Below the pieces are notes generated by a model, which saw nothing but the letters and a program-made list of their open reading frames with translations, was not told the DNA's origin and ran no database searches. Of a stretch of 32,953 bases of DNA, positions 2-26,718 are shown one piece after another; positions within the stretch are counted from its first letter, which is position 1; each line of letters starts with the position of its first letter. This DNA comes from Candidatus Goldiibacteriota bacterium (lineage in GTDB: Bacteria; Oederibacteriota; PGYV01; DSYL01), in the NCBI GenBank assembly GCA_026414685.1, contig JAOAIN010000061.1, positions 1 through 32,953 on the forward strand, in the 5' to 3' direction. The position numbers and the translations under genes are program-made.

Positions 2-964
2 TCATGGACTGTGAGTTTGACATCAAGTCCAACAGGAACGCAAACAGTAACAATTACTTTAACAAGAACTATAACACCAACCCACACTCGGACAGTGAGT
101 CCAACCCAGACAATAACAGACACGATATCATCAAATACACCAACCAGCACACTGACAAGAACAAACACATTAACATATACAGTGACTTTGAGTTATACAT
201 TTACTAGGACCCAGACACCAACGCACACAGAGACTATGACAAACACATCATCACCCACATGGACACGAACAATAACAGCGAGTTATACTGCAACGAATTC
301 AATAACACCAACCCACACTCGGACAGTGAGTCCAACCCAGACAATAACAGACACGATATCATCAAATACACCGACTGTTCCCTCTACTTTTACAGAAACA
401 TTTACTATAACCCGAACATTTACATCTACTCATTCATACACTGTAACGTTTACATCCACATTAACAAGAACATTTACAGTTGCATTAACACTGACATCTA
501 CATCAACTTATATATTGACTTATACAAATACTTTTACTTCTACTCGTACTTTAACATTGACAGCAACACAAACCAGAACACAGACAGTAACAGGCACCAT
601 ATCACCGACACCTACATTAACACCTACTTTTACAGTGACAATTAATATTCAAAGACCCACAATCAATGATGTAGTTATATATCCCAATCCATATAATCCC
701 AATAAGGATAATATGTATATTTCTTTTAATTCATTATATGGAATTAAAATTATAAAGATTAAAATTTATACTACTGGATACAGGAAAATAAAACAGTTTA
801 ATTTTTCTTCACATATTTATAATCCATATAATTCTGAAATTATAATTGAAAATAAATATTTGCATGACCTTGCAAATGGTGTATATCATATTATAATAAG
901 CATTAAAGATATGAAAAATGAAGAAATATGGTCAAAACCCAAGCAATTGATTATTCTGAGATAA
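2..964 (+). CDS. 5'-truncated Thr-rich (TxT) surface/secreted protein with C-terminal T9SS-CTD-like Ig domain
   Basis: Frame is open from the window edge. About 210 aa of alternating Thr-X are followed by VVIYPNPYNP...IKIYTTGYRKIK...LANGVYHIII...KQLIILR, resembling a type-A sorting/FlgD-like domain. Confidence 0.8.
   Translation, partial: SWTVSLTSSPTGTQTVTITLTRTITPTHTRTVSPTQTITDTISSNTPTSTLTRTNTLTYTVTLSYTFTRTQTPTHTETMTNTSSPTWTRTITASYTATNSITPTHTRTVSPTQTITDTISSNTPTVPSTFTETFTITRTFTSTHSYTVTFTSTLTRTFTVALTLTSTSTYILTYTNTFTSTRTLTLTATQTRTQTVTGTISPTPTLTPTFTVTINIQRPTINDVVIYPNPYNPNKDNMYISFNSLYGIKIIKIKIYTTGYRKIKQFNFSSHIYNPYNSEIIIENKYLHDLANGVYHIIISIKDMKNEEIWSKPKQLIILR
71..372 (+). repeat. Exact 71-bp intragenic direct repeat (71-141 and 302-372)
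   Basis: ATAACACCAACCCACACTCGG...ATCAAATACACC is identical in both copies; the offset is 231 nt (in frame). Confidence 0.95.
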
Positions 965-3757: not shown

Positions 3758-3842
3758 AAGTGTTGTGTAAATTGTAATTTGTCTATTGTATGTTTGAAAA
3801 AGCATGTCATATTAAAGAACATTTTTTATAGTGGAGGTTTTT

Positions 3843-4157
3843 ATGATACTTACAAATATTCCTATGGTTCCTGGTATGAAAATTGTAGAGCATTATGGAC
3901 TAGTTACTGGTAGCACTGTAAGGGCTAAGCATATAGGCAAAGATATAATGGCATCACTCAAAAACATAATAGGTGGTGAATTAAAGGGCTATACAGAACT
4001 TTTAAACGAAGCCCGAAAAGAAGCTTTAGAGCGTATGATAAAACAGGCAGAAAAACTTGGTGCCAATGCAGTAATTAATGTAAGATTTTCAACATCATCT
4101 ATTGCTCAAGGTGCAGCAGAACTTTATGTATATGGCACAGCAGTTAAGGTAGAATGA
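3843..4157 (+). CDS. YbjQ/UPF0145 family protein
   Basis: GLVTGSTVRAKHIGKDIMASLKNIIGGEL...GANAVINVRF...YGTAV; the GGAGG RBS favours ATG 3843. Confidence 0.93.
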   Translation: MILTNIPMVPGMKIVEHYGLVTGSTVRAKHIGKDIMASLKNIIGGELKGYTELLNEARKEALERMIKQAEKLGANAVINVRFSTSSIAQGAAELYVYGTAVKVE

Positions 4158-4657
4158 TGAACAGAGATAATTTAGCGTTTTTACAAATAATTTTAAATAA
4201 TCTTGATGTAATTTTTTTTATTTTTTTAGTATTTCTGGGTTTTACTTCAGGAACAATAGCTGAAAAGAGTCATTATAGATCTATAAAAAAAAGAGAAGAA
4301 AATTTAATGCATATACCTGTTGTAAATTCCGGTGATTTTATTGATAATTCAAAGGAAATAGAAAATGTTTATTTTATATCTGGTTCATGTGTAGTGGCTC
4401 TTGATTATTTTAAAATGGTTTTTGCTGCAATAAAACAGATTTTTGGTGGCCGTATTCAATCATATGAAACATTGATAGACCGGGGGAGAAGAGAAGCAAT
4501 ATTAAGATTAAAAGAAAAAGCTGCTAGTAAAAATGTTGATGTCATAATAAATTTAAGAATTGAGACATCATCAATCGGACAAAATGCAGGACAGAAAGGT
4601 GGTATAGGAAGTGTTGAGGTTTTTGCCTATGCCACCGCAATAACATATAAAAAATGA
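4154..4657 (+). CDS. YbjQ family protein with N-terminal TM helix
   Basis: IFGGRIQSYETLIDRGRREAILRLK...VEVFAYATAI; ATGA overlap with the previous gene. Confidence 0.88.
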   Translation: MMNRDNLAFLQIILNNLDVIFFIFLVFLGFTSGTIAEKSHYRSIKKREENLMHIPVVNSGDFIDNSKEIENVYFISGSCVVALDYFKMVFAAIKQIFGGRIQSYETLIDRGRREAILRLKEKAASKNVDVIINLRIETSSIGQNAGQKGGIGSVEVFAYATAITYKK

Positions 4658-5463
4658 AATATATACCAAAATTACCAGATGGTGATATAAATGCACCAAC
4701 AACAAATTTATTAAAGGATTTCATTTATTTTCTTGCAATACTTATTCTTGTAATAATCTTTATATATGTTTTTCTTGGTTTTCTTGTTGATATAGTTGCT
4801 GAAAAAATATCTCCAGAATTTGAAGAAAAACTTGCTTATAATTACATGATGATGTTTGAAAAAAAGCCTATAACAGTTAAAGAAAAGAAATTACAGAAAT
4901 TTTTAAATGATCTTGTTTCATACACAGATTTGAAAAACAGAAAATTTAATGCAAGAATACTTGAAACCAAACAGGTAAATGCTCTTGCCATGCCAGGAGG
5001 TAATATTATTGTTTTATCCGGATTATTAAAAACAGTAAAAACAGAAAATCAATTAGCATATGTTTTATATCATGAATTGGGACATTATGCCCATAAAGAC
5101 CATTTAAGAGGACTTGGTAGAGGTCTTGTTTTGTCATTAATTGCTACTGTTTTATTTGGTTCAGATACTTTTTTCAATAGAACACTCTCCAGTTCTATTT
5201 CCAACATTCAGCTAAAATATACAAGAAGCCAGGAAATAAAAGCAGATCTATATGCTATAGATTTACTTTATAAAAAATATAAAAATGTGGCAGGAGCAAC
5301 AGATTTACTGATAGTTTTTGGAAAAAATGAGCCTGCTTCCAAAGCATTTTCACTTTTTACTACTCATCCGCATTATTCAGATAGAATAAAAGCAATAGAT
5401 AATTACATTAAGAAAAAAAATTATAAGGTATTAATGAACAGTCAGATAAAATTAAATTTATAA
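4654..5463 (+). CDS. M48 family Zn metallopeptidase, membrane anchored
   Basis: NALAMPGG, HELGH (HExxH), EIKAD and THP motifs; N-terminal TM helix; ATGA overlap. Confidence 0.92.
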   Translation: MKYIPKLPDGDINAPTTNLLKDFIYFLAILILVIIFIYVFLGFLVDIVAEKISPEFEEKLAYNYMMMFEKKPITVKEKKLQKFLNDLVSYTDLKNRKFNARILETKQVNALAMPGGNIIVLSGLLKTVKTENQLAYVLYHELGHYAHKDHLRGLGRGLVLSLIATVLFGSDTFFNRTLSSSISNIQLKYTRSQEIKADLYAIDLLYKKYKNVAGATDLLIVFGKNEPASKAFSLFTTHPHYSDRIKAIDNYIKKKNYKVLMNSQIKLNL

Positions 5464-5532: not shown

Positions 5533-7032
5533 ATGTTAGAAGTAAAACTTGCTGGTTTTAATATAGATTATGATGCATTGGAGAAATTGAAAAAATTTGG
5601 CTGGGATGGAAAAGATAATTTAACCCCTGAGACAATTTCTGCTGCTTATGCCAGGATAAGCAGAGACCCAAGACCTGTGAATCAATTAAGAGAAGAAGCA
5701 AGGGAAGAAGTAGATAAAGCCAGAAAATCCAATGAAAATATTGTTTTTAAGATGGGACACCATTCTGTTGCTGAGCATGCTTATTTGAATTTTGATATTC
5801 TTGGTATTTCGCGTCTTGCTGTGGAATCACTTGAAGAGGCTCGGCTCTGTTCATATACAGAAAAATCACAACGTTATATAACTTTGGAGGGTGATTATGT
5901 TATTCCAGACGAATTTAATGAAAAAGAGAAAAATCTTTTCAGAAAAATAGTTGGGTTACAGGTTGATGCTTATAATAAGGTTTTACCTGTTTTACATGAA
6001 TATCAGAAGAAAATAAACATTGATAAATTAAATACTAAATCTGGTCAGAATATGGTTGAAGGATGGGCAAAAGAAGACGCACGATATATGGTATGTCTAG
6101 CCACTGAATGCCAGTTGGGATTTTCTACAAATGCACGTAATCTTGAATATATATTACGTAAATTAAAATATAACCCACTTTCTGAAGTGAGAAAACTATC
6201 CAAAATGCTCTATGACAGAGCAAAAAAGGTTGTTCCATCACTTATTATTTTATCTGATCCTGTTGCTTTTAAAAAGCAATTTGGTTGGGAAGTTTCAGAT
6301 GGATTTTTAAAGACTGGTTTAGAAAAGATTGAGATGCTTTCAAAAAATATAAAAATTTTTAGTAAAAAAACATCCCGAATAGAAAGGGAAGTAAATTTAT
6401 TTGACTGGACAGACAACATTGATGAGAAAATAATTGCTGGTTTACTTTATCAAAAAGGAAATATGGGATATTCACAATGCCTTTCAACAATTAAAAAATT
6501 TGACAAAAAGAAAAGAAAAAATATTTTCAAGATGTTTTTTGATGGTTTTACTGAATATGATTCCATGCCAAGGCAATTTGAATTTATAAATTTTTGTTTT
6601 GAATTGATAATAAGCGCCAGTGCCTTTGCACAATTAAAAAGACACAGAATGATGACTATATTAAAACAACCATATGATATAAATCTAGGGATAACCATAC
6701 CGCCATCATTCATTATAACTAACCAGGAAAAAATATTAAAAGATATTATTAGAAAAACAGAACATCTGTTTGAAAAATTATATAAAAAGAATAAACATGC
6801 GGCTGCGTATGTGTTAACAAATGCTCATAGGAGAAAAGTTTTAATAAATATAAATTTAAGAGAACTTTACCATCTTGCTCGTTTACGTATGGACAGTCAT
6901 GCTCAATGGGATATTCAAAACATAGTAACAGCCATGGTAGCAGCGGTTAAAAGGATAGCCCCGTTATCAGGTGCCCTCCTGTGTGGAAAAGATGAATTCA
7001 AAAAATGTTATGAAGAATTTATTAATAGTTAA
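5533..7032 (+). CDS. thyX: FAD-dependent thymidylate synthase, tandem-domain type
   Basis: GHHSVAEHA, SYTEKSQRY, EDARY and NARNLE in the N-terminal half; QLKRHR, NLRELYH and HAQWDI in the C-terminal half. Confidence 0.92.
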   Translation: MLEVKLAGFNIDYDALEKLKKFGWDGKDNLTPETISAAYARISRDPRPVNQLREEAREEVDKARKSNENIVFKMGHHSVAEHAYLNFDILGISRLAVESLEEARLCSYTEKSQRYITLEGDYVIPDEFNEKEKNLFRKIVGLQVDAYNKVLPVLHEYQKKINIDKLNTKSGQNMVEGWAKEDARYMVCLATECQLGFSTNARNLEYILRKLKYNPLSEVRKLSKMLYDRAKKVVPSLIILSDPVAFKKQFGWEVSDGFLKTGLEKIEMLSKNIKIFSKKTSRIEREVNLFDWTDNIDEKIIAGLLYQKGNMGYSQCLSTIKKFDKKKRKNIFKMFFDGFTEYDSMPRQFEFINFCFELIISASAFAQLKRHRMMTILKQPYDINLGITIPPSFIITNQEKILKDIIRKTEHLFEKLYKKNKHAAAYVLTNAHRRKVLININLRELYHLARLRMDSHAQWDIQNIVTAMVAAVKRIAPLSGALLCGKDEFKKCYEEFINS

Positions 7033-9483: not shown

Positions 9484-10188
9484 ATGATAAAAAAAATTTT
9501 AAAATTTACATTTTTATTTTTTTTGATAATAGCTTGTTGTATTAGTAATTATATTGCTACCAAAGATTTATTCAAAAACCAACCTGAATGGTATTTTTTA
9601 AGAAAACATTCTTTTAAAAAATTCAATCATATTTTAAGTGCTGCAATGGGTTTCAGAGCAGTTATGGCTGATTTTGAATACATATATTTTCTGCAATATT
9701 ATGGAGATCCGGCTAATAAAAGAGAGAGATACATTAAATTATATTCAATTTTTGATTCCATAACAGATATTGATCCACATTTTATTTTTACTTATACATT
9801 TGGTAGTGCTATTTTGGCTTTTGATGTAAAAAGATATGATGAGGCCATTTCATTGATAAAAAAAGGATTGAAATATAATCCTACATTGTGGAGGTTGAGA
9901 TTATATCTTGGAGCCATTGTTTATAAAGAATTAGAAGATAAAGAAAAATATGTAAGTTATCTTGAAGAAGCACTCAAATACGATGATCATCCAGCAATGA
10001 TAGAAAGAATATTAGGACATATTTATGAACAATATAAAACTCCTGATGAGGTAGTTGCTTACTGGGTTAAAATTTATAAAATCACAAAAGATAAAGAAAC
10101 ACGGCAGCATGCCTACAAAAAAATAATTCATTATATTGAGAGTAAAAAAATAAAAAATCCTGAATCAATTTTAGAACAGATAAAATGA
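9484..10188 (+). CDS. Membrane-anchored TPR-like protein (PilG/XapA-like)
   Basis: N-terminal TM/signal; [27 protein letters not shown] and TPR-like helices. Confidence 0.65.
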
Positions 10189-13001
10189 CCAAATATATAG
10201 TAATAAACGGAGCACGTGAGCATAATCTAAAAAATATAAATTTAAAAATTCCACGTGATAAACTGGTTGTTATAACTGGTGTATCTGGTTCTGGAAAATC
10301 ATCACTTGCCTTTGACACCATATATGCAGAAGGTCAAAGAAGATATGTGGAGTCATTATCTGCTTATGCCAGGCAGTTCTTAGGACAGATGCAGAAACCA
10401 GATGTAGATTCAATAGAAGGTTTATCTCCTGCAATTGCAATAGAACAGCGTAGTGCTGGAGCAAATCCACGTTCAACTGTTGGAACAATAACAGAAATTT
10501 ATGATTATTTAAGATTATTATATGCAAGAATTGGTATTCCTCATTGTCCTAATTGTAAAATACCAATAAAGTCCCAGACAGTGCAGCAGATTGTGGATAG
10601 AATACTCAAAATACCTGAAAAAACAAAAATTATGATACTGGCACCTGTTGTAAGAGGTAGAAAAGGAGAATACAATAAATTATTTGAAAATATTAAAAAA
10701 GAAGGTTTTTTAAGAGTACGAGTAGATGGTGAAGTAAAATCTCTTGATGAAAAGATAATTCTTGATAAAAATAAAAAACATTCAATAGAAATAGTCATAG
10801 ATAGAATTGAAACTGGAAATATAAATAAAAAACGTATAACAGAATCTGTAGAACTTGCCTTAAAAATTGGAGAGGGAATAATAATAATAAATCAGATAAA
10901 AGATAATCAAGATATGCTTTTTTCAGATAAATTATCCTGCCCTAACTGTGATTTTTCAATGGCAAAACTGGAGCCACGGATATTTTCATTTAATAATCCT
11001 TATGGTGCATGTCCTGTATGTACTGGATTAGGAAGTCGTGTTGAAGTTGATCCCAAACTTGTTGTTGATGAGGAACTAAGCATTAATGAAGGTGCACTTA
11101 AACCATGGACAAATCAGGAAAGTTATTACTGGCATCTTGTAACGGGTCTTGCAAAGCATATGAATTTTTCTCTTGGAACTCCATTTAAAAAGTTACCAGC
11201 AAATGTTAAAAATGCACTTCTATATGGTCTAAGTGAGGATATCAAATTTCATTACAAGGGTTTTGCAAGCGAATGGAAGCATTACGGACAATTTGAAGGT
11301 TTAATTCCATTTCTTGAAAGAAGATATAAGGAAACAGAAACAGAAAGAATAAGAGAAGAGATATTTGAAAAATATATGGAAGAAAAAGAATGCAGTGCAT
11401 GCAATGGTAAAAGATTAAAGCCGGAATCTCTGTCTGTTTTAATTGAAAAGAAATCAATAATTGATATCACTGAAATGTCCATAGAGAATTGTTATGAATT
11501 TTTTAATAATTTAAAACTTTCTGAAAAAGAAGAAATAATAGCAAGACAGATTCTAAAAGAAATAAAAGGTAGATTACAATTTTTAATCAACGTTGGTCTA
11601 TCTTATCTTACATTGGATAGAAAAGCAGGGACATTATCGGGTGGTGAATTTCAAAGAATTCATCTTGCGACACAGATAGGAGTGGGGCTTGTAGGTGTTT
11701 TATATATTCTTGATGAGCCCTCCATTGGATTGCATCAGAGGGATAATCAAAAACTTTTAAATACTCTGAAAACATTAAGAGATTTAGGAAATACTGTTAT
11801 TGTTGTTGAACATGATGAAGAAACAATATTGAATGCTGATTATATAGTTGATATGGGACCTGGACCAGGTGTTCATGGCGGAGAAGTTGTTGTTGCTGGT
11901 GATATCAATCAACTTATTAAATCAAAAAATTCAATAACTGCAAAATATCTTTTAAATAAAGAGAAAATTAAAATAAAAACTAAAAGAAGACAATTCAGCG
12001 GTGTCTTGGAAATAACAGGAGTAAATAAAAATAATTTAAAAAATTTAAATGTAAAGTTTCCACTCGGTGCTTTTATATGCATCACAGGAGTATCCGGCTC
12101 CGGTAAATCATCACTAATTGCTGAAACATTATATCCTGCATTAACTTACGAAGTTTACAGGGGTATTCATAAACCATCAGGTTATAAGGAACTTAAAAAC
12201 TGGAATTTAATTGATAAAGTTATTGAAATAGATCAATCACCCATAGGTTGAACTCCAAGATCCAATCCAGCAACTTATACGGGTGTTTTTACTGAAATCA
12301 GAGAACTTTTTGCAAATACAAAGGAAGCACGTCTGCGTGGTTATGGCCCAGGTAGGTTTTCTTTTAATGTGCGTGGTGGTAGATGTGAAGCGTGTGCTGG
12401 TGATGGAATTATTAAAATTGAGATGCATTTTTTACCAGATGTCTATGTGCCTTGCGAGGAATGTAAGGGTAAGAGATATAACAGAGAAACACTTGAAATT
12501 TTATACAAAGATAAAAATATCGCAGAAGTTCTTGAAATGCGTGTGGAAGAGGCCCTGAAATTTTTTGAAAATATACCAGGTATAAAAAGAATTCTCGAAA
12601 CCCTTGATGAAGTCGGACTTGGATATATTCAGCTTGGTCAATCAGCCACAACATTATCGGGCGGTGAAGCGCAGAGAGTAAAACTAGCAACTGAATTATC
12701 CAGAAAATCAACTGGAAAAACATTATATATGCTTGATGAGCCAACAACAGGACTTCATTTTGCAGATATTGAAAAACTTTTAAATGTTTTAAACAAACTT
12801 GTTGATATGGGAAATACAGTGATAGTTGTTGAACATAATCTTGATATAATTAAAAATGCTGACTGGATAATTGATTTAGGACCAGAAGGTGGAGATAAAG
12901 GTGGTTTTATTGTTGCCGAAGGCACTCCTGAGGATATTATGAAAAATAAAAATTCATACACGGGACAGTATTTAAGTAAATATTTAAAAAGAAACCTTTG
13001 A
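10185..13001 (+). pseudogene. uvrA: Excinuclease ABC subunit A, full length (938 codons) but with one in-frame TGA at 12249-12251
   Basis: GAREHNLK, two GVSGSGKS Walker A motifs, Zn fingers and two LSGGE signatures. It reads [17 protein letters not shown] and continues in frame into the 12369-13001 ORF. Confidence 0.95.
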
Positions 13002-15489: not shown

Positions 15490-15545
15490 TTATATATGGG
15501 AGTAGAAGTTAATTGAAAATTCATAGAGAAAAGGAGGTGAGGAAG

Positions 15546-17426
15546 ATGAAAATAATTATGTTGATTTATTTATTATTTTTCCTTTTTATGGACTCATATG
15601 CTAACTATAATCAAGCCATTTATATAATGGATACAGGAAATAATAGGATTCAAAAATATTCTTTAAATAGTGAATTTATATTATTATGGGGACAATATGG
15701 CAAAGAACCAGGAATGTTTATATCACCATCATCAGTGGCAATATCAAGAGACGGTAATTATATTTATGTTGTTGATACAGCAAATAACAGAATACAAAAA
15801 TTCACATCATCTGGCGAGTTTCTAACATTATGGGGTGGCCCAAATTATGGCACAGTAAATGGTATGTTTGCCAGTCCATCATGTATTGCAGTTAATTTTG
15901 AAAATGGTCAGGATTTTATTTATGTTGCAGATACAGGAAATAACAGAATACAGAAGTTTGACAGTTATGGTAACTGGATAAGTAATATAACCGGATTTAA
16001 TAATCCTCAGGGAATAACAGCAGATTATAATTTTAATTATTTATATGTTGCTGATACAGGAAATAATAAAATTAAAAAATATGATATAAGGGGGAATTTA
16101 ATTCAGGAGTGGGGCGGCTATGGAATAACACCAGGTAAATTCAGGTATCCAAGAGATCTTGCTGTTGATAAAAACAATAAAATATATGTAGCTGATGGAT
16201 TGAATTACAGAATACAGAAATTCACTTCTGAGGGAGTGTTTGAATTACTATGGGGAAGTAAAGGAAGTAATAATGGTCAGTTTTTGGATCATTTTGGTGT
16301 TGCCGTGGATAATGATAATAATGTTTATGTTGCGGATGCAGGAAATAATAGGATTCAAAAATTCACTGAAAATGGGCAATGGATAAGCAGTATTGGAAAC
16401 ATCAATCAGGGTTTTAATCCAGGAGAATTTTATTATCCACAGGGAATAGAAGTTTATATAGAGAGACCTTTGATTTATCCTACGGAAATTATTAACACTC
16501 CTACACAAGAAGAAATTACTCCGACTTTGACTTTCACTTGGACAACTAATCCAACAGAAACATTTACAAGCACTGTTATTCCTACAAGGGAAGAACTAAT
16601 AAAAGAAAATCTAGAGGAAAGTGAAAATACTCCAACATTTACACCTACAGATATTATGCTGGAGATAGAAACCCCTGTTGCAATAGAAACAGAAATAACA
16701 CCTTTTATAACTCCAACATCAACAGATAAACAATGCGAACTGTATTATTCCATTGAATACAATAAAAAGAAATATTTTCATGGTAAATTCATAAAATACA
16801 AAAACTTTATGAAAAAATATAATAAGAATATATGGAATGAAAAAATATCAATATATGAAAATGAATGTGGGGGTTATATTTATGAATTTGAAATGTATAA
16901 CCTAAAAATTTATGTATATGATATTTCAGGATGTTATCTTGATGAAATTGAAGAATTGATAGCAATGAAAAATAAGTTCAGAAAAGGACATTTTTATAGC
17001 TGGTTTATAAAAAAATGTATGAAAAAAAGTTATTATGGAATTGATAAGATTGATGAGATGACTATAATCAGTGTTGTAAAAAATATTTTAAAAGATGCAA
17101 GTGTTGATTACATAAGCAAAACTACTGATACTTTTGAAGAACTTGATGAAACCAATACATTTAATTATCCCAATCCATTCAAAGACAGGACAACTATAAG
17201 ATTTTCTCTTGATAAACCCCAAAATGTAAAAATAATTATTTCAGATATTAATGGAAAAATTATATGGCAAAAATATCTTATGTCATATGAAACACGACAA
17301 GGTGTTAATTATCTTGAATGGACTGGTGTTAATGATTATAGAATGAGAATATCAAATGGAACGTATATTTACAGAATAATTACAGATGAAAAAATAGTAG
17401 TTAAAAAATTTGTTATACTCAAATAG
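15546..17426 (+). CDS. Secreted NHL-repeat beta-propeller protein with P/T/E linker and C-terminal FlgD-Ig/T9SS-CTD-like domain
   Basis: The AGGAGGTG RBS favours ATG 15546. Six IYVADTGNNRIQKF-type repeats; C-terminal NYPNPFKDRTTIRF...WTG...NGTYIYRI...KFVILK. Confidence 0.88.
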   Translation: MKIIMLIYLLFFLFMDSYANYNQAIYIMDTGNNRIQKYSLNSEFILLWGQYGKEPGMFISPSSVAISRDGNYIYVVDTANNRIQKFTSSGEFLTLWGGPNYGTVNGMFASPSCIAVNFENGQDFIYVADTGNNRIQKFDSYGNWISNITGFNNPQGITADYNFNYLYVADTGNNKIKKYDIRGNLIQEWGGYGITPGKFRYPRDLAVDKNNKIYVADGLNYRIQKFTSEGVFELLWGSKGSNNGQFLDHFGVAVDNDNNVYVADAGNNRIQKFTENGQWISSIGNINQGFNPGEFYYPQGIEVYIERPLIYPTEIINTPTQEEITPTLTFTWTTNPTETFTSTVIPTREELIKENLEESENTPTFTPTDIMLEIETPVAIETEITPFITPTSTDKQCELYYSIEYNKKKYFHGKFIKYKNFMKKYNKNIWNEKISIYENECGGYIYEFEMYNLKIYVYDISGCYLDEIEELIAMKNKFRKGHFYSWFIKKCMKKSYYGIDKIDEMTIISVVKNILKDASVDYISKTTDTFEELDETNTFNYPNPFKDRTTIRFSLDKPQNVKIIISDINGKIIWQKYLMSYETRQGVNYLEWTGVNDYRMRISNGTYIYRIITDEKIVVKKFVILK

Positions 17427-18081: not shown

Positions 18082-19008
18082 ATGAATAAAAAGACTATTT
18101 TTTTTATTATTATTATTTTGTTTGCTATATTTATATCATATAAACTAATTCCTTTTCAATCAGGAAAAGATATTTCAAGTCTAAATATAGGTAAAAAGCA
18201 AATTGCCCTCATAAATATTGAAGGCGAAATTTCAAATGATTTACATATAATGGAACTTTTGAATCTTTATTCAAATATGAAATCTGTTAAGGCGATCATT
18301 TTACGTATTAACAGCCCTGGGGGGAGTGTTGGTTCTTCTCAGGAAATTTACAGACAGATTAAAAAGGTAAAAGAAAAGGGAAAGATTGTTATATCATCAT
18401 TGAGTGATGTTGGTGCATCAGGGGCTTATTATATCGCAATGGCCGCTGATAAAATATATTCTAATCCTGGAACTATAACCGGCTCAATAGGCGTTGTTAT
18501 AAATTATATAAATGCAGAAAAATTACTTGGAAAGATTGGAGTGGATTTTGTTACTGTAAAATCCGGTAAATATAAAGATGCTGGTTCATTTTCAAGACAA
18601 ACATCAGAAGAAGAGAAACGTTTATTTCAAAAGCTAATAAATGATGTTCATGAACAGTTTGTAAATGATATTGCAGAATCAAGGTTTGAACAGATTGCAG
18701 CAGCTGCAAAGATACAGGAGAAAGAAGAAAAGAAAAGAAAAGAACTTATCAAAAAATATATTATGAACAATATTGCAGACGGCAGAATAATTACAGGTAT
18801 TGAAGCAAAAAAACTTGGTTTAGTTGATGAAATAGGAAATATAGATGATGCAATAGAAGCAACTGCTGCAATGATTGGTATATCCGGTAGACCACTGGTA
18901 ATATCAGAAAAAAAGAAATCAGGTTTAGCATCATGGCTTAATTCAAAATTTGAAAATTTTACTTTTAAAAACGATTATAATATATTAAAATATTTAATGA
19001 TTAATTAA
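18082..19008 (+). CDS. sppA: Signal peptide peptidase SppA, 36K type (S49)
   Basis: RINSPGGS, GASGAYYIA, TGSIGV, KSGKYKD and GLVDEIG motifs. Confidence 0.95.
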   Translation: MNKKTIFFIIIILFAIFISYKLIPFQSGKDISSLNIGKKQIALINIEGEISNDLHIMELLNLYSNMKSVKAIILRINSPGGSVGSSQEIYRQIKKVKEKGKIVISSLSDVGASGAYYIAMAADKIYSNPGTITGSIGVVINYINAEKLLGKIGVDFVTVKSGKYKDAGSFSRQTSEEEKRLFQKLINDVHEQFVNDIAESRFEQIAAAAKIQEKEEKKRKELIKKYIMNNIADGRIITGIEAKKLGLVDEIGNIDDAIEATAAMIGISGRPLVISEKKKSGLASWLNSKFENFTFKNDYNILKYLMIN

Positions 19009-19032
19009 AATAAAGAATCCAAGGAGGATATA

Positions 19033-21402
19033 ATGGCTCAAAATCCTGATGCAGGGAAAACCAATCTTCCAAAAGATACAACTCCAAATCCAATGGATGC
19101 TGTTTCTGGAGAAACAAAACCTGTTGCTGCACCAGTATCTGCACCTGTAAAAGAAGCTCCACAGACCATTGCAGAGCAAGAAGAACAACCCAAAGATGCA
19201 AAATCTCTTTTAAAAGAAATATTAATTGAATCTCCATGGACAAATAGAATTTATCAATTTGTTATTTTATTACTTGGTTTATACGGTATTTATCTATCAA
19301 TAAAAGGCCAGATATTTTCACCATTACCTGCAATATTTGGGATGTTATTACTTAGTTTGGTTGCTTTAATTGATGTTTATCTTATAAAAAAATTCAGACA
19401 AAAATATGAAAAATTAGAAACTATAGTACGTTTTGTACTCGCAGGATTATTTGCTTTATTTATGATTGTATTTATAATAGAATTATTCAAACCATTTGAT
19501 ATCACAGTAAATAAAAATTTAATATTGGTGTGTTTTATTGCAGTTGTAGCTGTATTTATTGTTAATTTTTTATTATATATAAAAACAAATAGAGAAAAAA
19601 TTGTTGCTGATGTTTATATGTTTATTGCTATTTTATTTGCAGTTATTTCTGTCATTGTTTTTTATCAATATCAAGTAATTTTAAGTTTTTTTCTTATGTT
19701 AATTAGTGGGTCTTCAATAATAGCATCTATCAATAACGATCCCCTGAAAAAGGATGATCGTTTTCCAACTAGGATGTTAATTATTTTGCTGACAGGTATC
19801 ATGTTTACTGCTGTTTTTACTTATGCATCTTTGATTTTCACAAATCAACCATTAAAAGTTATAACCTTTGGAACCATATCCGATAACTTTTCAAAAAAAC
19901 CAGAAAATTTATCATGGTCAGGTGATTCCTGGTCTTTTGCATATAATGTTTTTAATAATAAAAAGAAAGAAAATAAGATAGGAATAATAAATGCCTTATC
20001 CCTTGGTCTTACTGAACTTCCTGCGGATAATTCTGATATTAAATTACCTAAATTTGTTGATAAACCAATATGGAATAACAATGGTTCAAAACTGATATTC
20101 ACCTGCTCTGATTCAAAAGATGGATATAAGAAAATCTGGGGAATTAATTTAAATCTTTCACTGGTAAAAGAGAAAAAGAAAAAAGGTAAAAAAGAAACAG
20201 AAAAAAAATTAAGAACAAAAGAAGATGATATTTTAAACAGACCTGTAGGTAAACCAAAAGTGCTTTTAAGTGACATGAACTTAATTGTTGATAAAGATTG
20301 TCAGCCAGTGATTCATAGAACTGCTTGGGCTCCTGATGGCTATCGTTTTGTATTTGCAGCCAAAGATGATGATTCAAATAATAATAATATTTGGGTAGCA
20401 GACACAAAAACACAGGAATATAATAAAATAACCAAAGGACAAAATAAAATAATGCCTTTGTGGTCACCAGCCGAAGATAAAATATTATATGTCACAAAAA
20501 CAGACAACTATACATATCTTAAAATTACAAATTATGATGGCTCCAATCCACATGAATTGAATATAAATAATAAATCAGATAGGATTTTATTCCCTTTATG
20601 GAATGCAAATGAATCAAAAGTTATTTATATAAAAAATAATAAACTTATAATAATGAATGCAAATGCAACAAATCAACAGGAATTAACAAAACAGACACTG
20701 GTTTATTCTGATTACTGGTTAACCGATGCCAAGAAAAAAGTAAAACTTGCCTTTACTGAATCAGGAACAATCTGGCGCATTTTTACCATAGATTCAGAAG
20801 GAAATAATCCAAAAGAAATATTCACAGAGGTTTGTGATTCTATGATACAGCCGAAATGGTCTTATGATGGTGAAGTGATATGTGCCGGAACCAATTATGT
20901 TAATTACAGTTCACTCTGGAGATTGAATAAAGATGGTGAAATGAAAATCAAACTGTTCACATCAAAACATAAAATAAAAAATATTGAATGGGATCCATCT
21001 TCAAAAAGAATAGCTTTTTTACTTGAGAAGGATATAAAAGATAACATTTGGTATAATGAACCACATGAAAAAATATATCAGATATGGGTTGTTGAACGCG
21101 ATGGCACAAATCCGAGATTTGTATATGAATCAATAGGTATAATTAATAATATAACTTGGGATGATATGGGAAAAAATATTGCATTTGATGAAACCTATTC
21201 TAGATGGTATTTTGCTCCAAAAATAACAACAGTAAAAGTTGCAAATGTAATTGATAATAAAGTAACAGATTTATTACCTTATGAATCATATGCAGAATAC
21301 CCTGCATGGTCTTATGATGGTCAAATCCTCGCCTATGTAAGCTGGGCAGAATTTTGGAGACCGACATTTTCAAAGAAAATATGGATTGCTCAGGTTAAAT
21401 AA
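19033..21402 (+). CDS. Polytopic (about 7 TM) membrane protein with TolB-like PD40 beta-propeller region
   Basis: Pro/Ala-rich N-terminal tail and 7 hydrophobic segments, then repeated WSGD/WAPDG/WSP/WSYDG/WDP blades. Confidence 0.8.
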   Translation: MAQNPDAGKTNLPKDTTPNPMDAVSGETKPVAAPVSAPVKEAPQTIAEQEEQPKDAKSLLKEILIESPWTNRIYQFVILLLGLYGIYLSIKGQIFSPLPAIFGMLLLSLVALIDVYLIKKFRQKYEKLETIVRFVLAGLFALFMIVFIIELFKPFDITVNKNLILVCFIAVVAVFIVNFLLYIKTNREKIVADVYMFIAILFAVISVIVFYQYQVILSFFLMLISGSSIIASINNDPLKKDDRFPTRMLIILLTGIMFTAVFTYASLIFTNQPLKVITFGTISDNFSKKPENLSWSGDSWSFAYNVFNNKKKENKIGIINALSLGLTELPADNSDIKLPKFVDKPIWNNNGSKLIFTCSDSKDGYKKIWGINLNLSLVKEKKKKGKKETEKKLRTKEDDILNRPVGKPKVLLSDMNLIVDKDCQPVIHRTAWAPDGYRFVFAAKDDDSNNNNIWVADTKTQEYNKITKGQNKIMPLWSPAEDKILYVTKTDNYTYLKITNYDGSNPHELNINNKSDRILFPLWNANESKVIYIKNNKLIIMNANATNQQELTKQTLVYSDYWLTDAKKKVKLAFTESGTIWRIFTIDSEGNNPKEIFTEVCDSMIQPKWSYDGEVICAGTNYVNYSSLWRLNKDGEMKIKLFTSKHKIKNIEWDPSSKRIAFLLEKDIKDNIWYNEPHEKIYQIWVVERDGTNPRFVYESIGIINNITWDDMGKNIAFDETYSRWYFAPKITTVKVANVIDNKVTDLLPYESYAEYPAWSYDGQILAYVSWAEFWRPTFSKKIWIAQVK

Positions 21403-21582
21403 CTATTAAAATAACCTATTATTAAATATTTATAACTTGTAAATTACATTATTATTACATAATCTAAAACATTCATAAAAATATATAAGTCACATATTAA
21501 ATCTTAAAATATTTAATCCATATTATGAAACTTTTCTAAAATAGTTTATCTGATAAAACATATTTTCACAAAATAAAAATAA

Positions 21583-21611
21583 TTGACAAAATCCTTTTAA
21601 AATGTCAAAAT
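21583..21611 (+). promoter_or_regulatory. Putative promoter overlapping a TTGACA-N14-TGTCAA palindrome
   Basis: TTGACA at 21583-21588, TGTCAA at 21603-21608, and CAAAAT at 17-bp spacing preceded by TGn. Confidence 0.45.
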
Positions 21612-21633
21612 ATTTACAAAAAAATAATTTCAT

Positions 21634-23592
21634 ATGGTGGAAATAATAATGCATGTAAGAAAAGTTTTTTTAATAATTTTTTTAAATATTTTATTGATAT
21701 ATAAAAATATTTACAGTGATGAAACTCTGATAGGAACAACATCAAATAATTTTTTAAAAATTCAATTACCTGCAAGACCTGCTGCTATAGGTGAATCATA
21801 TGTTGCCCTTGCAGATGATATTAATTCAATTTTTTATAATCCAGCAGGCATAGGTAAAAGTATGTTAACTGAATTGTCTTTCACACATGCCGAATGGTTT
21901 CAACAGATAAGATATGAAAATTTAAGTTTTCTTATTCCTTTTTCTTTTGGAAATATTGCAGGTGCTATTAATTTTTTAAATATATCAACCATGGATAAAA
22001 CTCTTTCTATTTCACCACTTACCTATACAAAAGAATATACTTTTACTCCATATAGTTTAAATGGTATCTTAACTTATGCAAAAGAGTTCACGGATAATCT
22101 TTTTGTTGGATTAAATTTAAAATTTGTAAATTATACAATTGATTCACAGGATGAAAATGGCTCTTCATTTTCTATTTTATCTGATATAGGGTTGATATAT
22201 GATATGCCATTTTTGAAAGGATTTTCAACTGGGCTTGTTTTTAAAAATTTGGGGCCTTCTTCAAAATTTATAAGTGAAAATTATATGCAACCCATAGATA
22301 TGAAAGTTGGTTTAGCATATGCAATGGATTTTTTAGCATTATCAGCGGATATTGCATATCCACTTGATAATAATTTAAATTTTTATCTTGGTGGAGAAAT
22401 TAATTTATTTGAAATTCTATCCATTCGTGCTGGATATAAAGGCGGGACCATTAATCAGCCAACATTTGGCGCCGGTATTAATTATGCCCGCTTTTTTGTT
22501 GATTATGCATTTGTCCCTTATTCAGAAGAGAATCTCGGGATAACACATAGAATAACTGCTTCATACAAATTCGGAGCACCAGAATCAAAAATAATTTTTA
22601 ATCCTAAAGTTTTTTCACCAAATAATGATAAATTTGTTGATTATTCTTTTATACAAAAAGATATTATGCAAAAAAATAAAGTTAAAAATTATATCTTGAC
22701 AATTTATAATGAATTGAATGAGCCTGTTATAAAGACATCAAAATTGCATCCTGATACAAAACTTTTCTGGAATGGTTTTGATTCATTTAAAAAGATTGTC
22801 CCTGACGGAACCTATTACGGTAAACTTGAAACAATTTATTTAAATGGAATTAAATCAGAATCAAATATAGCTTCCGTTACAGTTGATAATACACCGCCTG
22901 AGGTGAAGATAGATGCAAACCCCAAAATGGTAAAACCCGGACAGATAACTGCATTATATGCACCTGTTAAATTCTCACCAGCTGTATTTGATTTACATGG
23001 CATAAGTAAATGGAAATTGATTATTTACACAGCAGATAATAAAATATTTAAAACTTTTGAAGGAACAGGTGAGCCTAAGGAAATTACATGGGATGGTTCA
23101 GATAATACTGGTTTGAATTATGTAAATACAGGCACAACTTATTATTACATCATGTATGCTGCTGATAGTGTTGGTAACTGGGGTAAATCAATCTCTGATA
23201 AAGTAAAGGTTTTATTAAGAGAAATAGTAATAACCCTTTCTTCTGATACACTTTTTGATTTGGGAAAGGCAGATGTGAAAATAAGTGTTTATAATGACCT
23301 TAAAAAAGTTGCAAATAAAATCAAATCACTCAATAACCCAACCGTGGTTATTGAAGGCCATACTGATAATTTACCTCTTTATTCAAGTAAATATAAGGAT
23401 AATCAGGAATTATCAGAATACAGGGCAAAAGCGGTTGGACGTTTTTTAGTAGAATTATTCAATATAAAACCAGAAATAATTTCAACTGTTGGTCTAGGAG
23501 ACACTCAACCAGTTGCATCAAATGATACACCAGAAGGGAGGAAAAAGAATAGGCGGGTTACTATAAGAATAAAAACAAGCAAGTGGGAATAA
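21634..23592 (+). CDS. PorV/PorQ-like (UPF0164) barrel plus two FlgD/CHU-like Ig domains plus OmpA/MotB peptidoglycan-binding domain
   Basis: FLKIQLPARPAAIGESYVALADDINSIFYNPAG...THRITASYKF; FSPNND..WNG..VPDGTY; ITWDG; IEGHTDN..NQELSEYRA..NRRV. The start may be ATG 21649. Confidence 0.85.
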   Translation: MVEIIMHVRKVFLIIFLNILLIYKNIYSDETLIGTTSNNFLKIQLPARPAAIGESYVALADDINSIFYNPAGIGKSMLTELSFTHAEWFQQIRYENLSFLIPFSFGNIAGAINFLNISTMDKTLSISPLTYTKEYTFTPYSLNGILTYAKEFTDNLFVGLNLKFVNYTIDSQDENGSSFSILSDIGLIYDMPFLKGFSTGLVFKNLGPSSKFISENYMQPIDMKVGLAYAMDFLALSADIAYPLDNNLNFYLGGEINLFEILSIRAGYKGGTINQPTFGAGINYARFFVDYAFVPYSEENLGITHRITASYKFGAPESKIIFNPKVFSPNNDKFVDYSFIQKDIMQKNKVKNYILTIYNELNEPVIKTSKLHPDTKLFWNGFDSFKKIVPDGTYYGKLETIYLNGIKSESNIASVTVDNTPPEVKIDANPKMVKPGQITALYAPVKFSPAVFDLHGISKWKLIIYTADNKIFKTFEGTGEPKEITWDGSDNTGLNYVNTGTTYYYIMYAADSVGNWGKSISDKVKVLLREIVITLSSDTLFDLGKADVKISVYNDLKKVANKIKSLNNPTVVIEGHTDNLPLYSSKYKDNQELSEYRAKAVGRFLVELFNIKPEIISTVGLGDTQPVASNDTPEGRKKNRRVTIRIKTSKWE

Positions 23593-23718: not shown

Positions 23719-23738
23719 AAAAAATATTGGAGGTAAAT

Positions 23739-24518
23739 ATGAGAAGAAAACAGTTTTATGATACAACGGTCCAATCGGTTCAACGAACTCTGGATATCAT
23801 TGAAACATTAAGCGAGTATAAAACTGGTGTTGGAGTAACCACATTAAGTAAAGAGTTAAAGCTGCATAAAAGCACTGTTCATCGTTTGCTTACAACTCTT
23901 ATGTTACGCAAGTATGTTGAGCAGGACCCAGAAACATCCAAATATAAACTTGGAATGCGTCTATTTGAAATAGGAAATGCAGTGCTTTCAAAACTTGATA
24001 TAAGGCAACATGCATCACCTTATTTAAGACAGTTATGGAAACAATGCGGTGAAACAGTGCAATTATCCATAGTTGATCAATATAAAGTCCTATATATTGA
24101 TGTCCTTGAATCTCTTGAAAAAGTAGGTGTTAAATCAAATGTTGGAGAAAGAGCACCACTTCATTGTTCAGCACCTGGTAAAATTTGGCTTGCAAATTTA
24201 CCAGAGGATCGTTTAAATGAAGTGATAAAAATGATTAAATTTGAACCTTATACTCCTTATACAATTGATAATGTTGAAAAATTAAAAGCATCTGTTCAGC
24301 AAGCAAGAGAACTTGGCTATGCAATTGATAATCAGGAATATTCTACAGATCTTATCTCTGTTTCTGCTGCAATTAAAAATTATAGAGGTAGGGTTATTGC
24401 ATGTGTTTCAATTACTGCACCTGCGTTGCGGACAAATGATGATAAAATAAAAGAAATGGGAAATAATGTTAAAACAACAGCAGAAAAAATTTCTCAATCA
24501 ATGGGGTTTAATAAATAA
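23739..24518 (+). CDS. IclR family transcriptional regulator
   Basis: VQSVQRTLDIIE...LHKSTVHRLLTTL HTH, PLHCSAPGK and GYAIDNQE; the GGAGG RBS favours ATG 23739. Confidence 0.95.
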   Translation: MRRKQFYDTTVQSVQRTLDIIETLSEYKTGVGVTTLSKELKLHKSTVHRLLTTLMLRKYVEQDPETSKYKLGMRLFEIGNAVLSKLDIRQHASPYLRQLWKQCGETVQLSIVDQYKVLYIDVLESLEKVGVKSNVGERAPLHCSAPGKIWLANLPEDRLNEVIKMIKFEPYTPYTIDNVEKLKASVQQARELGYAIDNQEYSTDLISVSAAIKNYRGRVIACVSITAPALRTNDDKIKEMGNNVKTTAEKISQSMGFNK

Positions 24519-24551
24519 CTAATTCATATCAATAAACATTAGGAGATTGCT

Positions 24552-26718
<2,167 letters not shown>

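Follow-up and report, generated by a model that had tools for sequence, protein, structure and literature searches.

Type IX secretion is described, in the parts of the literature accessible to us, as a system of the Bacteroidota/FCB group with a GldLM/PorLM motor and a PorU sortase (PMC4793230; PMC11205867). Among the described systems closest to the locus reported here are the PorE–PorP–PG1035 complex of Porphyromonas gingivalis, which serves in type B CTD anchoring (PMC9143113, in excerpt), and the cognate PorV-like barrels that have been proposed, i.e. PorQ for PorZ and PorP for type B cargo (PMC10202324, in excerpt). In a literature search that did not extend to supplements, Goldbacteria with type IX secretion appeared only as a mention in a reference list. 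The papers found on PorV-like or PorQ-like proteins all concerned Bacteroidota; none was found on PorV expansions outside that phylum, on a wall-tethered PorV-like barrel or on cargo–barrel pairs.

The window (the whole stretch of DNA that was analysed, 32 953 nucleotides long) belongs to a MAG of an uncultured hot-spring member of Candidatus Goldiibacteriota (Goldbacteria), 93.8% complete. An earlier note on this DNA had listed a barrel fusion, SppA, a 7-TM propeller protein and two CTD genes, and had taken the genome to be non-Bacteroidota; all of these parts are present where the note placed them (Table 1), and the closest relative that has a name is a MAG of Candidatus Goldiibacteriota. 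The barrel fusion and the propeller protein are referred to below as P0001 and P0002 respectively.

Table 1. Features of the window, with the evidence on which each assignment is based.
Feature	Position	Strand	Evidence
3' portion of a gene, product with a divergent CTD at its end (~662-958)	2..964	+	own-genome CTD HMM
NHL-repeat protein with type A CTD (CTD 17166-17417)	15513..17426	+	TIGR04183 38.8 bits, cut-off 23
sppA (signal peptide peptidase), 308 aa	18082..19008	+	TIGR00706, Peptidase_S49
7-TM + beta-propeller protein P0002, 789 aa	19033..21402	+	profile matches, AF2 model, Foldseek
P0002, seven predicted TM helices, aa 68-270	19234..19842	+	AF2 model
P0002, PD40-type beta-propeller region, aa 278-787	19864..21393	+	PD40, Foldseek
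231-bp spacer, propeller gene to barrel gene	21403..21633	.	promoter-like site 21583-21611
PorV/PorQ-family barrel-Ig-Ig-OmpA_C fusion P0001, 652 aa	21634..23592	+	profile matches, AF2 model, Foldseek
P0001, predicted signal peptide, ~aa 1-28	21634..21717	+	hydrophobic N-terminus; putative cleavage site
P0001, PorV/PorQ-type beta-barrel, aa 35-314	21736..22575	+	NF033709; top structural matches 8gl6_F / 6h3i_F
P0001, periplasmic Ig-like domain 1, aa 318-417, CTD-like sequence	22585..22884	+	CHU_C, own-genome CTD HMM, model strands
P0001, periplasmic Ig-like domain 2, aa 423-525	22900..23208	+	FlgD_ig below cut-off; beta-sandwich strands in model
P0001, OmpA_C peptidoglycan-binding domain (predicted), aa 531-647	23224..23574	+	Pfam OmpA; PDB domain matches; motif residues

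The barrel of P0001 matched the NCBIfam PorV_fam model NF033709 over its entire length (aa 35–313 on model positions 1–326 of 326) with 132.5 bits (cut-off 90), and with 133.5 bits over the same span in the genome-wide search. It also matched Pfam UPF0164 (23.8 bits, cut-off 21.4), a family first defined in Treponema. The AF2 model (mean pLDDT 83.4) comprises a barrel, two β-sandwiches and an OmpA_C fold, and its top Foldseek match was the PorV of F. johnsoniae (8gl6_F, E 3.5e-15; 6h3i_F, E 1.2e-12; TMt 0.64). The more specific models were not reached: P0001 scored 81.3 bits against the PorQ equivalog NF033711 (cut-off 220), while the PorV equivalog NF033710 (cut-off 250) and the PorE model NF052230 (cut-off 600) lay outside the best 25 of 44 families, the last of which had E 5.3e-12 and 45.3 bits, NF033710 therefore being no better. 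The first Ig-like domain matched Pfam CHU_C (31.8 bits, cut-off 27, aa 324–399) and was also detected by the HMM of the genome's own CTDs (aa 323–400, E 8e-6); the second reached 23.6 bits with FlgD_ig, under the cut-off of 27 (aa 457–509). At the C-terminus, Pfam OmpA (PF00691) matched aa 540–640 with 75.2 bits (cut-off 27.2), and OmpA/MotB/OprF domains in the PDB gave E-values of 1e-17 to 1e-9. OmpA-like domains carry the motif GHTDN...LSxxRA with a conserved Asp and Arg. This motif is retained in P0001, N590, L593, S594 and R597 being invariant among 34 aligned sequences and T577, D578 and N579 being kept in at least 90% of them, and the domain probably binds peptidoglycan. P0001 would thus be an outer-membrane PorV/PorQ barrel followed at its C-terminus, on the periplasmic side, by two Ig spacers and OmpA_C, and such binding would fix the barrel to the wall, so that it could not diffuse as a shuttle. 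Full-length orthologs (49–72% identity) are encoded in all 11 other genomes of the order.

The protein encoded upstream, P0002, had been called TolB-like. Its PD40 propeller was confirmed (Pfam PD40, 31.2 bits), but the TolB model TIGR02800 gave only 69 bits (cut-off 343.15), through propeller blades alone, and in the AF2 model the N-terminus is a 7-TM domain as against the TolA-binding N-domain of TolB, a soluble periplasmic protein. Foldseek matched the propeller to generic propellers only (tricorn, DPP4, oligogalacturonate lyase). The TM domain matched no Pfam or NCBIfam family, Foldseek matches being confined to the propeller, and the ESM Atlas returned no usable feature match, with all structural matches at TM < 0.5. 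The positively charged loops lie on one side, which predicts a periplasmic propeller. Orthologs of P0002 are likewise present in all 11 other genomes of the order. Immediately upstream and separated by 24 bp lies sppA (TIGR00706, 205.5 bits, cut-off 155.45; Peptidase_S49, 145.7 bits).

Like PorP–PorE–PG1035, as far as the accessible parts of the source describe it, the locus combines a PorV-like outer-membrane barrel, a β-propeller and an OmpA_C domain, both being without PorU. The parts are distributed differently. PorE is a single lipoprotein of TPR, β-propeller, CRD and OmpA_C, whereas here the corresponding parts are split over two genes: barrel and OmpA_C share one polypeptide with two Ig domains between them, and the propeller belongs to a second protein with a predicted 7-TM inner-membrane anchor, in contrast to that of PorE, which the excerpts place in an outer-membrane lipoprotein. 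Unlike PorP, the P0001 barrel matched PorV/PorQ models and not PorP_SprF, and has no adjacent cargo gene; the host, moreover, lies outside the Bacteroidota and GldKLM were not found in it. With the attachment complex (PorQ–PorZ and PorV–PorU, again as known from excerpts) the locus may share, by analogy, the use of a PorV/PorQ barrel as outer-membrane holder of an uncleaved CTD protein, but this genome has about 27 paralogs, neither equivalog cut-off is reached, cargo and barrel genes are adjacent, and no PorU or PorZ context was found in the host. The PorV (LptO) shuttle of F. johnsoniae and P. gingivalis (6h3i, 8gl6) matches the barrel best in structure and falls in the same NCBIfam subfamily, yet sequence identity is 15–16%, and a wall-tethered barrel could not move between translocon and attachment complex. 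OmpA and OprF likewise join a barrel to a C-terminal OmpA_C wall anchor, although the barrel of P0001 is of the FadL/PorV type and not the 8-stranded OmpA type. TolB–Pal also places a periplasmic PD40 propeller beside an OmpA_C protein; P0002 differs from TolB in its poor match to the TolB model and in being membrane-anchored by seven helices.

The PorV family is greatly expanded in the host genome, with 29 PorV_fam matches in 27 ORFs (14 ORFs over the cut-off), many of the barrels carrying periplasmic TPR, Ig, fn3 or OmpA extensions. P0001 is one of four Ig–OmpA paralogs, and the barrel–Ig–Ig–OmpA fusion is hence not unique in this genome. The paralogs were nearer to PorQ (54–95 bits) than to PorV (25.9–51.6 bits, four paralogs), and for one Ig–OmpA paralog, C8, the match to the PorE model NF052230 (43.2 bits) was confined to the OmpA part. 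The tree computed from 22 of the 27 barrels, without the five fragmentary ORFs, was star-like, with 12 of 19 inner branches open and terminal branches of about 1.4 changes per site, so that it does not establish the Ig–OmpA members as a single clade.

As had been supposed, CTDs are common to many proteins of this genome: TIGR04183 gave 30 matches (28 over the cut-off), and the own-genome HMM detected CTDs in 58 ORFs. Cargo and barrel genes are frequently paired: of the 23 barrels with assembled upstream DNA, 13 (C144 included) directly follow a recognised CTD gene in the same orientation, at gaps of −4 to 183 bp. The same was seen in five genomes of five families, where a CTD gene was upstream of 49 of the 150 barrels listed (downstream control, 8/150). 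The P0001 gene itself has no adjoining CTD gene, and its upstream neighbour P0002 has no CTD by sequence and is absent from the matches of the own-genome CTD HMM; the P0001 barrel may nevertheless bind CTDs, for which the gene pairing of its paralogs is indirect evidence. The two CTD genes of the window had been considered as its partners. This did not hold: real pairs are directly adjacent, and the NHL–CTD gene was found near the sppA–barrel block in only one of eight related loci. Both genes were rejected as cognate cargo of P0001, lying 4–20 kb away with unrelated genes between. The product of 15513..17426 counts among the cargo of the system, but its gene is not conserved next to that of the barrel.

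The other components fit the expectation of a rearranged system. A SprA-like ORF in the host scored 190.8 bits (cut-off 200), being cut by a contig end after 1523 aa, and all five relatives contain SprA-like frames of 2065–2177 aa that match in collinear pieces, no single piece exceeding the cut-off; Pfam SprA_N did not match the SprA-like proteins. GldK/PorK gave no match in the host genome and none over the cut-off in 13 genomes of the order, the partial matches, nearly all of them in the C-terminal half of the model, reaching 63 bits at most (cut-off 350). GldL/PorL and GldM/PorM were each detected in 0/13 genomes, in a search that lacked a positive control and in which very divergent motors could have escaped. 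The PorU model NF033707 was matched in the host only through its CTD part (positions 962–1095), and Peptidase_C25 was absent from 12 genomes including the host and found in one other (G061), which served as internal positive.

Gene order around P0001 is conserved throughout the order. The propeller gene adjoins the barrel gene in 9 of the 11 other genomes and in 8/8 related loci examined (G032 has two genes inserted between them), and sppA adjoins the propeller gene in 8/8 related loci. The adjacency put forward in the earlier note thus stands, but as part of a longer collinear block (sppA, propeller, barrel, iclR, GH5 in 7/8 loci, tgt and yajC), so that it may be plain synteny and says little alone. 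A P0002 homolog was found in 17 of the 18 genomes with a near-complete P0001 match, compared with 2/43 others, these genomes being kin and not independent samples; outside the order, propeller homologs (25–27% identity) were never on the contig of the fusion. A second link between the two families comes from C8, which overlaps a TPR + propeller gene by 4 bp (translationally coupled). This pair recurs side by side in G006 and G050 (G054, G026 and G013 fell outside the check), where it forms one co-oriented cluster with the SprA-like gene, and in four of five relatives the distance between the TPR + propeller gene and the SprA-like gene is about 9 kb.

Co-folding of the barrel protein with the propeller, as the earlier note had proposed, gave a score of 0.46 for P0002 aa 272–789 with the periplasmic region of P0001 (aa 315–652; runs 0.44–0.53), the best of three controls scoring 0.00; the runs agreed in 100% of contacts and partner pLDDT was at least 83. 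In calibration the mark was reached by 116/157 solved complexes and 2/215 mismatches, and scores of 0.60 or less were those of 18/157 solved complexes and of both passing mismatches; the result weakly supports a possible binding of the P0002 propeller to P0001. Likeness to TolB–Pal could also yield such a pass from the model's memory.

We give a probability of roughly one half to the reading that P0001 serves a reduced, T9SS-like display system as a docking unit, anchored to the wall and comparable to PorP/PorE. Such a system in Goldbacteria would combine a SprA-like translocon with dozens of CTD proteins and with PorV/PorQ paralogs, about 27 in number, and would operate without the GldKLM motor/ring or the PorU sortase, neither of which was found. 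By analogy with PorZ–PorQ and type B cargo–PorP, the CTD proteins would probably be held at the surface non-covalently by PorV/PorQ-like barrels, the Ig–OmpA subclass and a propeller protein together taking the role of Porphyromonas PorP and PorE as a docking complex anchored to the wall. P0002, the inner-membrane 7-TM protein, would be the propeller partner encoded in the window.

A somewhat unlikely alternative, compatible with the docking unit, is that P0001 and the three other Ig–OmpA paralogs are abundant barrels equivalent to OmpA/OprF or Pal, which would tie the outer membrane to peptidoglycan with the propeller as TolB-like partner and no direct role in secretion. Other wall tethers are scarce in the host genome: only six OmpA-domain matches were obtained (the four PorV–Ig–OmpA fusions, one propeller–OmpA protein and one MotB), no stand-alone Pal-like protein being among them, no SLH domain was detected (four control genomes gave matches), and no TolB match exceeded the cut-off (best 192.8 bits vs 343). 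An order-wide ortholog and the lack of an adjoining cargo gene would also suit a structural tie. However, the search for tethers covered OmpA and SLH domains in a genome that is not quite complete, the barrel family otherwise goes together with CTD cargo genes in the host and its relatives, the first Ig domain of P0001 is CTD-like, and in G006 and G050 a paralogous Ig–OmpA/propeller pair and the SprA-like gene form one co-oriented cluster. Very improbable, by comparison, is the idea of a channel of FadL type that takes up hydrophobic compounds and carries its wall anchor incidentally, on which view the likeness to PorV would reflect the shared FadL fold only. PorV is itself a FadL homologue (PMC12578637, in excerpt), P0001 passes UPF0164, TodX (E 2.4e-7, TMt 0.47) and FadL (E 2.5e-7, TMt 0.52) were among the lower-ranked Foldseek matches, and some paralogs matched Toluene_X weakly (17–24 bits, all under the cut-off of 29.7). 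P0001 itself, though, gave no match to Toluene_X (PF03349, FadL/TodX) at E 0.01, the E-value of PorV is better by 5–8 orders of magnitude and its TM-score is higher, the NF033709 cut-off is exceeded by 42 bits, and the family expansion is linked with CTD cargo genes; the barrel is PorV-like and not merely FadL-like, as first proposed.

It is a real possibility, falling short of even odds, that sppA and the 7-TM propeller gene lie beside the barrel gene without any functional relation to it, the barrel working alone and the apparent module being an accident of gene order. This would fit the collinearity of the whole block from sppA to tgt/yajC, the insertion tolerated in G032, the absence of the adjacency outside the order and the 231-bp spacer with its promoter-like site, a spacer that also weighs against the docking unit. 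It accords less well with the co-occurrence of the P0001 and P0002 families across genomes, with the independent coupling of C8 to a propeller gene, adjacent again in G006 and G050, and, weakly, with the co-folding score. The promoter-like site (21583–21611, TTGACA-17-CAAAAT with TG, 10/12) is a consensus match only, such sites having been found at chance level in the scan (51 vs 50.9 expected), and no + strand terminator-like site was found in the spacers among the sppA, propeller and barrel genes. Of the sequencing runs listed, a single DNA run (X1) contains positions 18082–23592, and no RNA run does.

If P0001 is a docking unit, the fusion of barrel and wall anchor would be a covalent solution to a job done in Porphyromonas by separate PorP and PorE. 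The finding also suggests a way in which Pal, SLH porins and a small barrel of the OmpA type could be dispensed with in fastening the outer membrane of this lineage to the wall. An unrelated candidate phylum with a giant protein resembling the translocon, several dozen sorting domains and a large PorV/PorQ radiation, apparently without motor and sortase, also offers a natural test of which parts suffice for CTD-dependent export and surface retention. More speculatively, and in our view quite unlikely, Goldbacteria, outside the FCB group, might possess a motor-less, sortase-less relative of the T9SS in which a SprA-like pore exports CTD proteins, each retained by its own PorV/PorQ-like barrel, and in which the wall-fixed barrel–Ig–Ig–OmpA subclass, clamped by inner-membrane or TPR-linked propellers, forms a static trans-envelope scaffold replacing the PorKN ring and PorE. 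The CTD-like first Ig domain of P0001 might then dock the translocon from the periplasmic side. Were this true, the ancestral type IX core would have been SprA, PorV-like barrels and CTDs, with the GldKLMN motor a later addition in Bacteroidota.

The 2..964 product matched no Pfam or NCBIfam family, and its CTD was recognized by the HMM of the genome's other CTDs, which matched the last 99 residues (aa 221–319) with E 1.6e-7. The database record of P0001 (P0003) is 647 aa in length and begins at Met6 of the window ORF.

The product P0001 starts with a signal-peptide-like N-terminus, followed by a barrel that aligned with the full 326 positions of the PorV/PorQ subfamily model of NCBIfam (132.5 bits; cut-off 90), two beta-sandwich (Ig) domains and, at the C-terminal end, an OmpA_C domain (75.2 bits), confirming the barrel-Ig-OmpA fusion that an earlier note had described downstream of sppA and a 7-TM propeller gene (see table). 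The first Ig domain scored above the cut-off of Pfam CHU_C, the type B CTD family (31.8 vs. 27 bits), and weakly matched an HMM built from the genome's own T9SS C-terminal sorting domains (CTDs; E 8e-6); the second lay slightly under the FlgD_ig cut-off. In Foldseek searches with the AF2 model (mean pLDDT 83.4; alignment of 34 sequences), the structures nearest to the barrel were those of Flavobacterium johnsoniae PorV in SprA complexes (8gl6_F, E 3.5e-15; 6h3i_F, E 1.2e-12; TMt 0.64), with TodX and FadL well behind (E 2.4e-7 and 2.5e-7; TMt 0.47 and 0.52), so that the proposed PorV-like identity does not dissolve into FadL-type matches only. These profiles place P0001 in the PorV/PorQ subfamily; equivalog models ruled it out as PorV, PorQ or PorE. 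Its database relatives are named 'PorV/PorQ family protein' by NCBI and MotB or OmpA-like by JGI. The OmpA_C domain aligned residue by residue to MotB, and across the 34 aligned sequences N590, L593, S594 and R597 of its motif were invariant and T577, D578 and N579 were present in at least 90%; in structures of OmpA-like domains, residues of this motif contact peptidoglycan.

The MAG containing the window (2.17 Mb; 269 contigs; 93.8% complete; G+C about 28%) belongs to a candidate phylum, Candidatus Goldiibacteriota, that NCBI taxonomy places outside the FCB group. A protein 94% identical to P0001 occurs in a record of another MAG of this name, and the stretch was present in one DNA run labelled hot springs metagenome.

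Coordinates of the features discussed (window positions unless a contig is named)
Feature	Position	Strand	Details
CTD protein	2-964		own-genome CTD HMM, E 1.6e-7
Two YbjQ_1 genes, M48 peptidase gene	3831-5463		
thyX	5533-7032		499 aa
uvrA, both parts	10185-13001		
uvrA, first ORF	10185-12251		688 aa
uvrA, second ORF	12369-13001		210 aa
sppA	18082-19008	+	TIGR00706, 205.5 bits (cut-off 155.45); real ORF
P0002, 7-TM propeller protein	19033-21402	+	789 aa; real ORF
P0001, barrel-Ig-Ig-OmpA_C fusion	21634-23592	+	652 aa; real ORF
IclR-family regulator and GH5 cellulase genes	23727-25631		
Cluster with SprA-like gene (L078)	G006:C14:97500-117400		SprA-like protein, 2079 aa
Cluster with SprA-like gene (L079)	G050:C2:364500-384400		SprA-like protein, 2165 aa
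Peptidase_C25 protein, relative G061	C5:20854-22203		1676-aa frame
Peptidase_C25 protein, relative G061	C9:89683-91182		1230-aa frame

P0001 is one of a large set of related barrels. The PorV family model matched the genome at 29 places in 27 ORFs, 14 of them above the cut-off. A Pfam scan of 24 of these ORFs and P0001 distinguished nine bare barrels (about 300-333 aa), seven with C-terminal TPRs, two extended by just a FlgD_ig domain, one each carrying fn3 or an extension matching no family, and four with both Ig and OmpA domains, i.e. the window gene and those on contigs C8 (693 aa), C124 (754 aa) and C173 (partial, the gene being cut by the contig end); the other three ORFs are fragments, one of which was scanned and had no family. 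CTDs are likewise common to many proteins, as the earlier note had supposed, with 30 detected by TIGR04183 and 58 ORFs by the own-genome HMM, including the one at the start of the window.

Many barrels are paired with a cargo gene. A CTD gene lies immediately 5' of the barrel gene on the same strand in 12 of the 27 cases (gaps of -4 to 183 bp), and a thirteenth pair, on C144, was seen on scanning a small upstream ORF; because four barrel ORFs abut contig ends, the paired count is 13 of 23 assessable barrels. The C8 barrel has a CTD gene 592 bp upstream, and unpaired barrels are preceded by genes for RNase R, LacI, a GT2 and a RecF-like ATPase. Of the 150 PorV-family matches listed in five better-assembled genomes, each from a different family of this phylum-level group, at least 49 had a TIGR04183 match whose end lay under 700 bp upstream in the same orientation (at least 9/36 in G050, 8/25 in G006, 9/34 in G004, 19/39 in G012 and 4/16 in G015); 12 PorV and 41 CTD matches fell outside this tally, so that paired counts are lower bounds. 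A CTD match starting within 3 kb 3', our downstream control, occurred for 8 of the 150 among the matches listed.

Compared with the canonical T9SS, the Goldbacteria system failed our tests for GldK and PorU. The search for sprA and motor-ring genes had a mixed outcome: a SprA-like ORF, truncated to 1523 aa where contig C58 ends, scored 190.8 bits (cut-off 200) and had counterparts with frames of 2065-2177 aa in 5/5 relatives, and profile searches of the genome retrieved no GldK, GldL or GldM. Across the order, GldK was above the cut-off in 0/13 genomes, with nearly all of the weak partial matches falling in the model's C-terminal half and control genomes likewise below the cut-off; GldL and GldM were each found in 0/13 genomes, a result of unproven sensitivity because no control genome matched either. 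The PorU model matched the source genome solely via its CTD end, and Peptidase_C25 was absent from 12/13 genomes of the order, including this one, in a search able to detect the family since it found it twice in G061. The two large G061 proteins (see table) are possible PorU- or gingipain-like enzymes, a type otherwise missing from the lineage.

P0002 comprises a low-complexity N-terminus, seven predicted TM helices (residues 68-270) and about 510 residues of beta-propeller sheets (AF2 pLDDT 76; Pfam PD40, 31.2 bits). Because positively charged loops alternate, the propeller is predicted to be periplasmic. Its structural matches comprised only generic propellers (Foldseek), and it was rejected as TolB (69 bits; cut-off 343). 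The gene starts 24 bp after sppA, to which we assign no specific role; it may just be needed where Sec traffic is heavy.

All 11 other sampled genomes of the order encode a full-length ortholog of P0001 (49-72% identity) together with further full-length paralogs (33-41%). The same genomes encode P0002 orthologs, located immediately upstream in nine, 3.3 kb away with two inserted genes in G032, and on a different contig in G058, where the P0001 ortholog lies at a contig end. The order sppA, propeller, barrel, iclR and, later, tgt was present in 8/8 fetched loci, with GH5 between iclR and tgt in 7/8 and yajC after tgt wherever the locus extends that far. The adjacency noted earlier is thus conserved, although as part of a larger collinear block, so that taken alone it is indistinguishable from plain synteny. 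Among these loci, G050 alone has the NHL-CTD and PilZ genes close by. Outside the order, propeller homologs shared 25-27% identity over the propeller part only, and fusion and propeller homologs never occurred on one contig. The IclR-family and GH5 cellulase genes lie directly 3' of the barrel gene; the first characterisation of a Goldbacteria member reportedly described a cellulose degrader.

Three more lines of evidence favour a functional connection of Ig-OmpA barrels with propellers. The C8 barrel gene overlaps by 4 bp a TPR and propeller gene (363 aa), followed by a 624-aa TPR protein. Five relatives each encode a single clear ortholog of the TPR and propeller gene, which in G006 and G050 lies immediately 3' of a barrel-Ig-OmpA gene; there the pair starts a co-oriented cluster encoding a TPR protein, LacI, an O-antigen-ligase-like protein (Wzy_C), a heptosyltransferase (GT9), a 219-232-aa protein, the SprA-like giant and an Fn3 protein. 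Judged by coordinates, the distance of about 9 kb from this gene to SprA recurs in G026 and G013 and not in G054. The cluster also ties LPS-core genes to a translocon-like gene. On C124, the genome's fifth OmpA protein is a propeller-OmpA fusion (545 aa) encoded beside a 349-aa propeller protein and 2 kb from the Ig-OmpA barrel. Finally, co-folding residues 272-789 of P0002 with residues 315-652 of P0001 scored 0.46 (runs 0.46, 0.53 and 0.44; best of three controls 0.00), with 100% contact agreement and partner pLDDT of at least 83, lending weak support to a contact between the propeller and the periplasmic part of P0001. In calibration, the mark was reached by 116/157 solved complexes and 2/215 mismatches, scores up to 0.60 comprising 18/157 solved complexes and both passing mismatches, counts that apply only roughly here because we used our own alignments; the pass could also stem from model memory of a TolB-Pal likeness.

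Other wall tethers are scarce. The whole genome has six OmpA-domain matches (C8, C124, C173, C183 and the window): the four barrel fusions, the propeller-OmpA protein and MotB, whose gene adjoins MotA and FliL. No SLH domain was found in the genome (four control genomes matched), and no protein reached the TolB cut-off (best 192.8 bits vs. 343), leaving the PorV-Ig-OmpA proteins as the sole outer-membrane barrels with a peptidoglycan-binding domain among the tether types searched. This scarcity supports the view that they mainly tie the outer membrane to peptidoglycan, with no direct part in secretion, which we consider rather unlikely; it is also compatible with the reading we prefer, at a probability of roughly 0.5, that P0001 is a wall-anchored PorP/PorE-like docking unit in a reduced T9SS-like system.

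According to PMC10202324, PorU and PorZ of known systems retain their CTDs, with PorV holding the former and PorQ the latter; the holders of type B cargo are cognate PorP/SprF barrels, encoded in clusters with the cargo gene; and PorE is an outer-membrane protein binding peptidoglycan. For Goldbacteria, the fusion's domain make-up, the expansion of the barrel family, its pairing with cargo genes, the conserved gene order and the shortage of other tethers are observed, whereas the way the parts act together is proposed. Under the docking-unit reading, Goldbacteria CTD proteins would cross the SprA-like pore and remain bound to PorV/PorQ-like barrels, many private to a single cargo. The Ig-OmpA subclass would be fixed to the wall, its two Ig domains bridging the gap from the outer membrane, and touched by a propeller protein, inner-membrane-anchored in the window and TPR-bearing on C8, yielding a static PorP/PorE-like complex. 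With about 40 CTD proteins lacking a private barrel, P0001 might be a generalist holder. The earlier interpretation as a rearranged PorV/CTD export or display system is partly supported, the role of P0001 itself being a putative one.

Two reports describe the T9SS as restricted to Bacteroidetes (PMC4793230) or the FCB superphylum (PMC11205867), and our literature search found no paper reporting, outside Bacteroidota, a radiation of the PorV family, pairs of cargo and barrel genes or fusions of a barrel to OmpA. New here are the cargo-less Ig-OmpA barrel with its conserved 7-TM propeller neighbour, the near-monopoly of the fusion on wall tethering, and the paralogous barrel-propeller pair linked to a SprA-like gene. 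The finding is solid and bears on the question of how a type IX-like system can export proteins when motor and sortase are missing.

Elsewhere in the window, uvrA seems split into an ORF with UvrA interaction and DNA-binding domains and one with the last ABC_tran part, separated by about 117 bp and a frame change, with a frameshift, a misassembly and a genuine split as possible causes. The ThyX product has two matched Thy1 stretches, suggesting a flavin-dependent thymidylate synthase duplicated and fused in tandem. Two tandem YbjQ_1 (putative heavy-metal-binding) genes precede an M48 peptidase gene, with overlapping stop and start codons.
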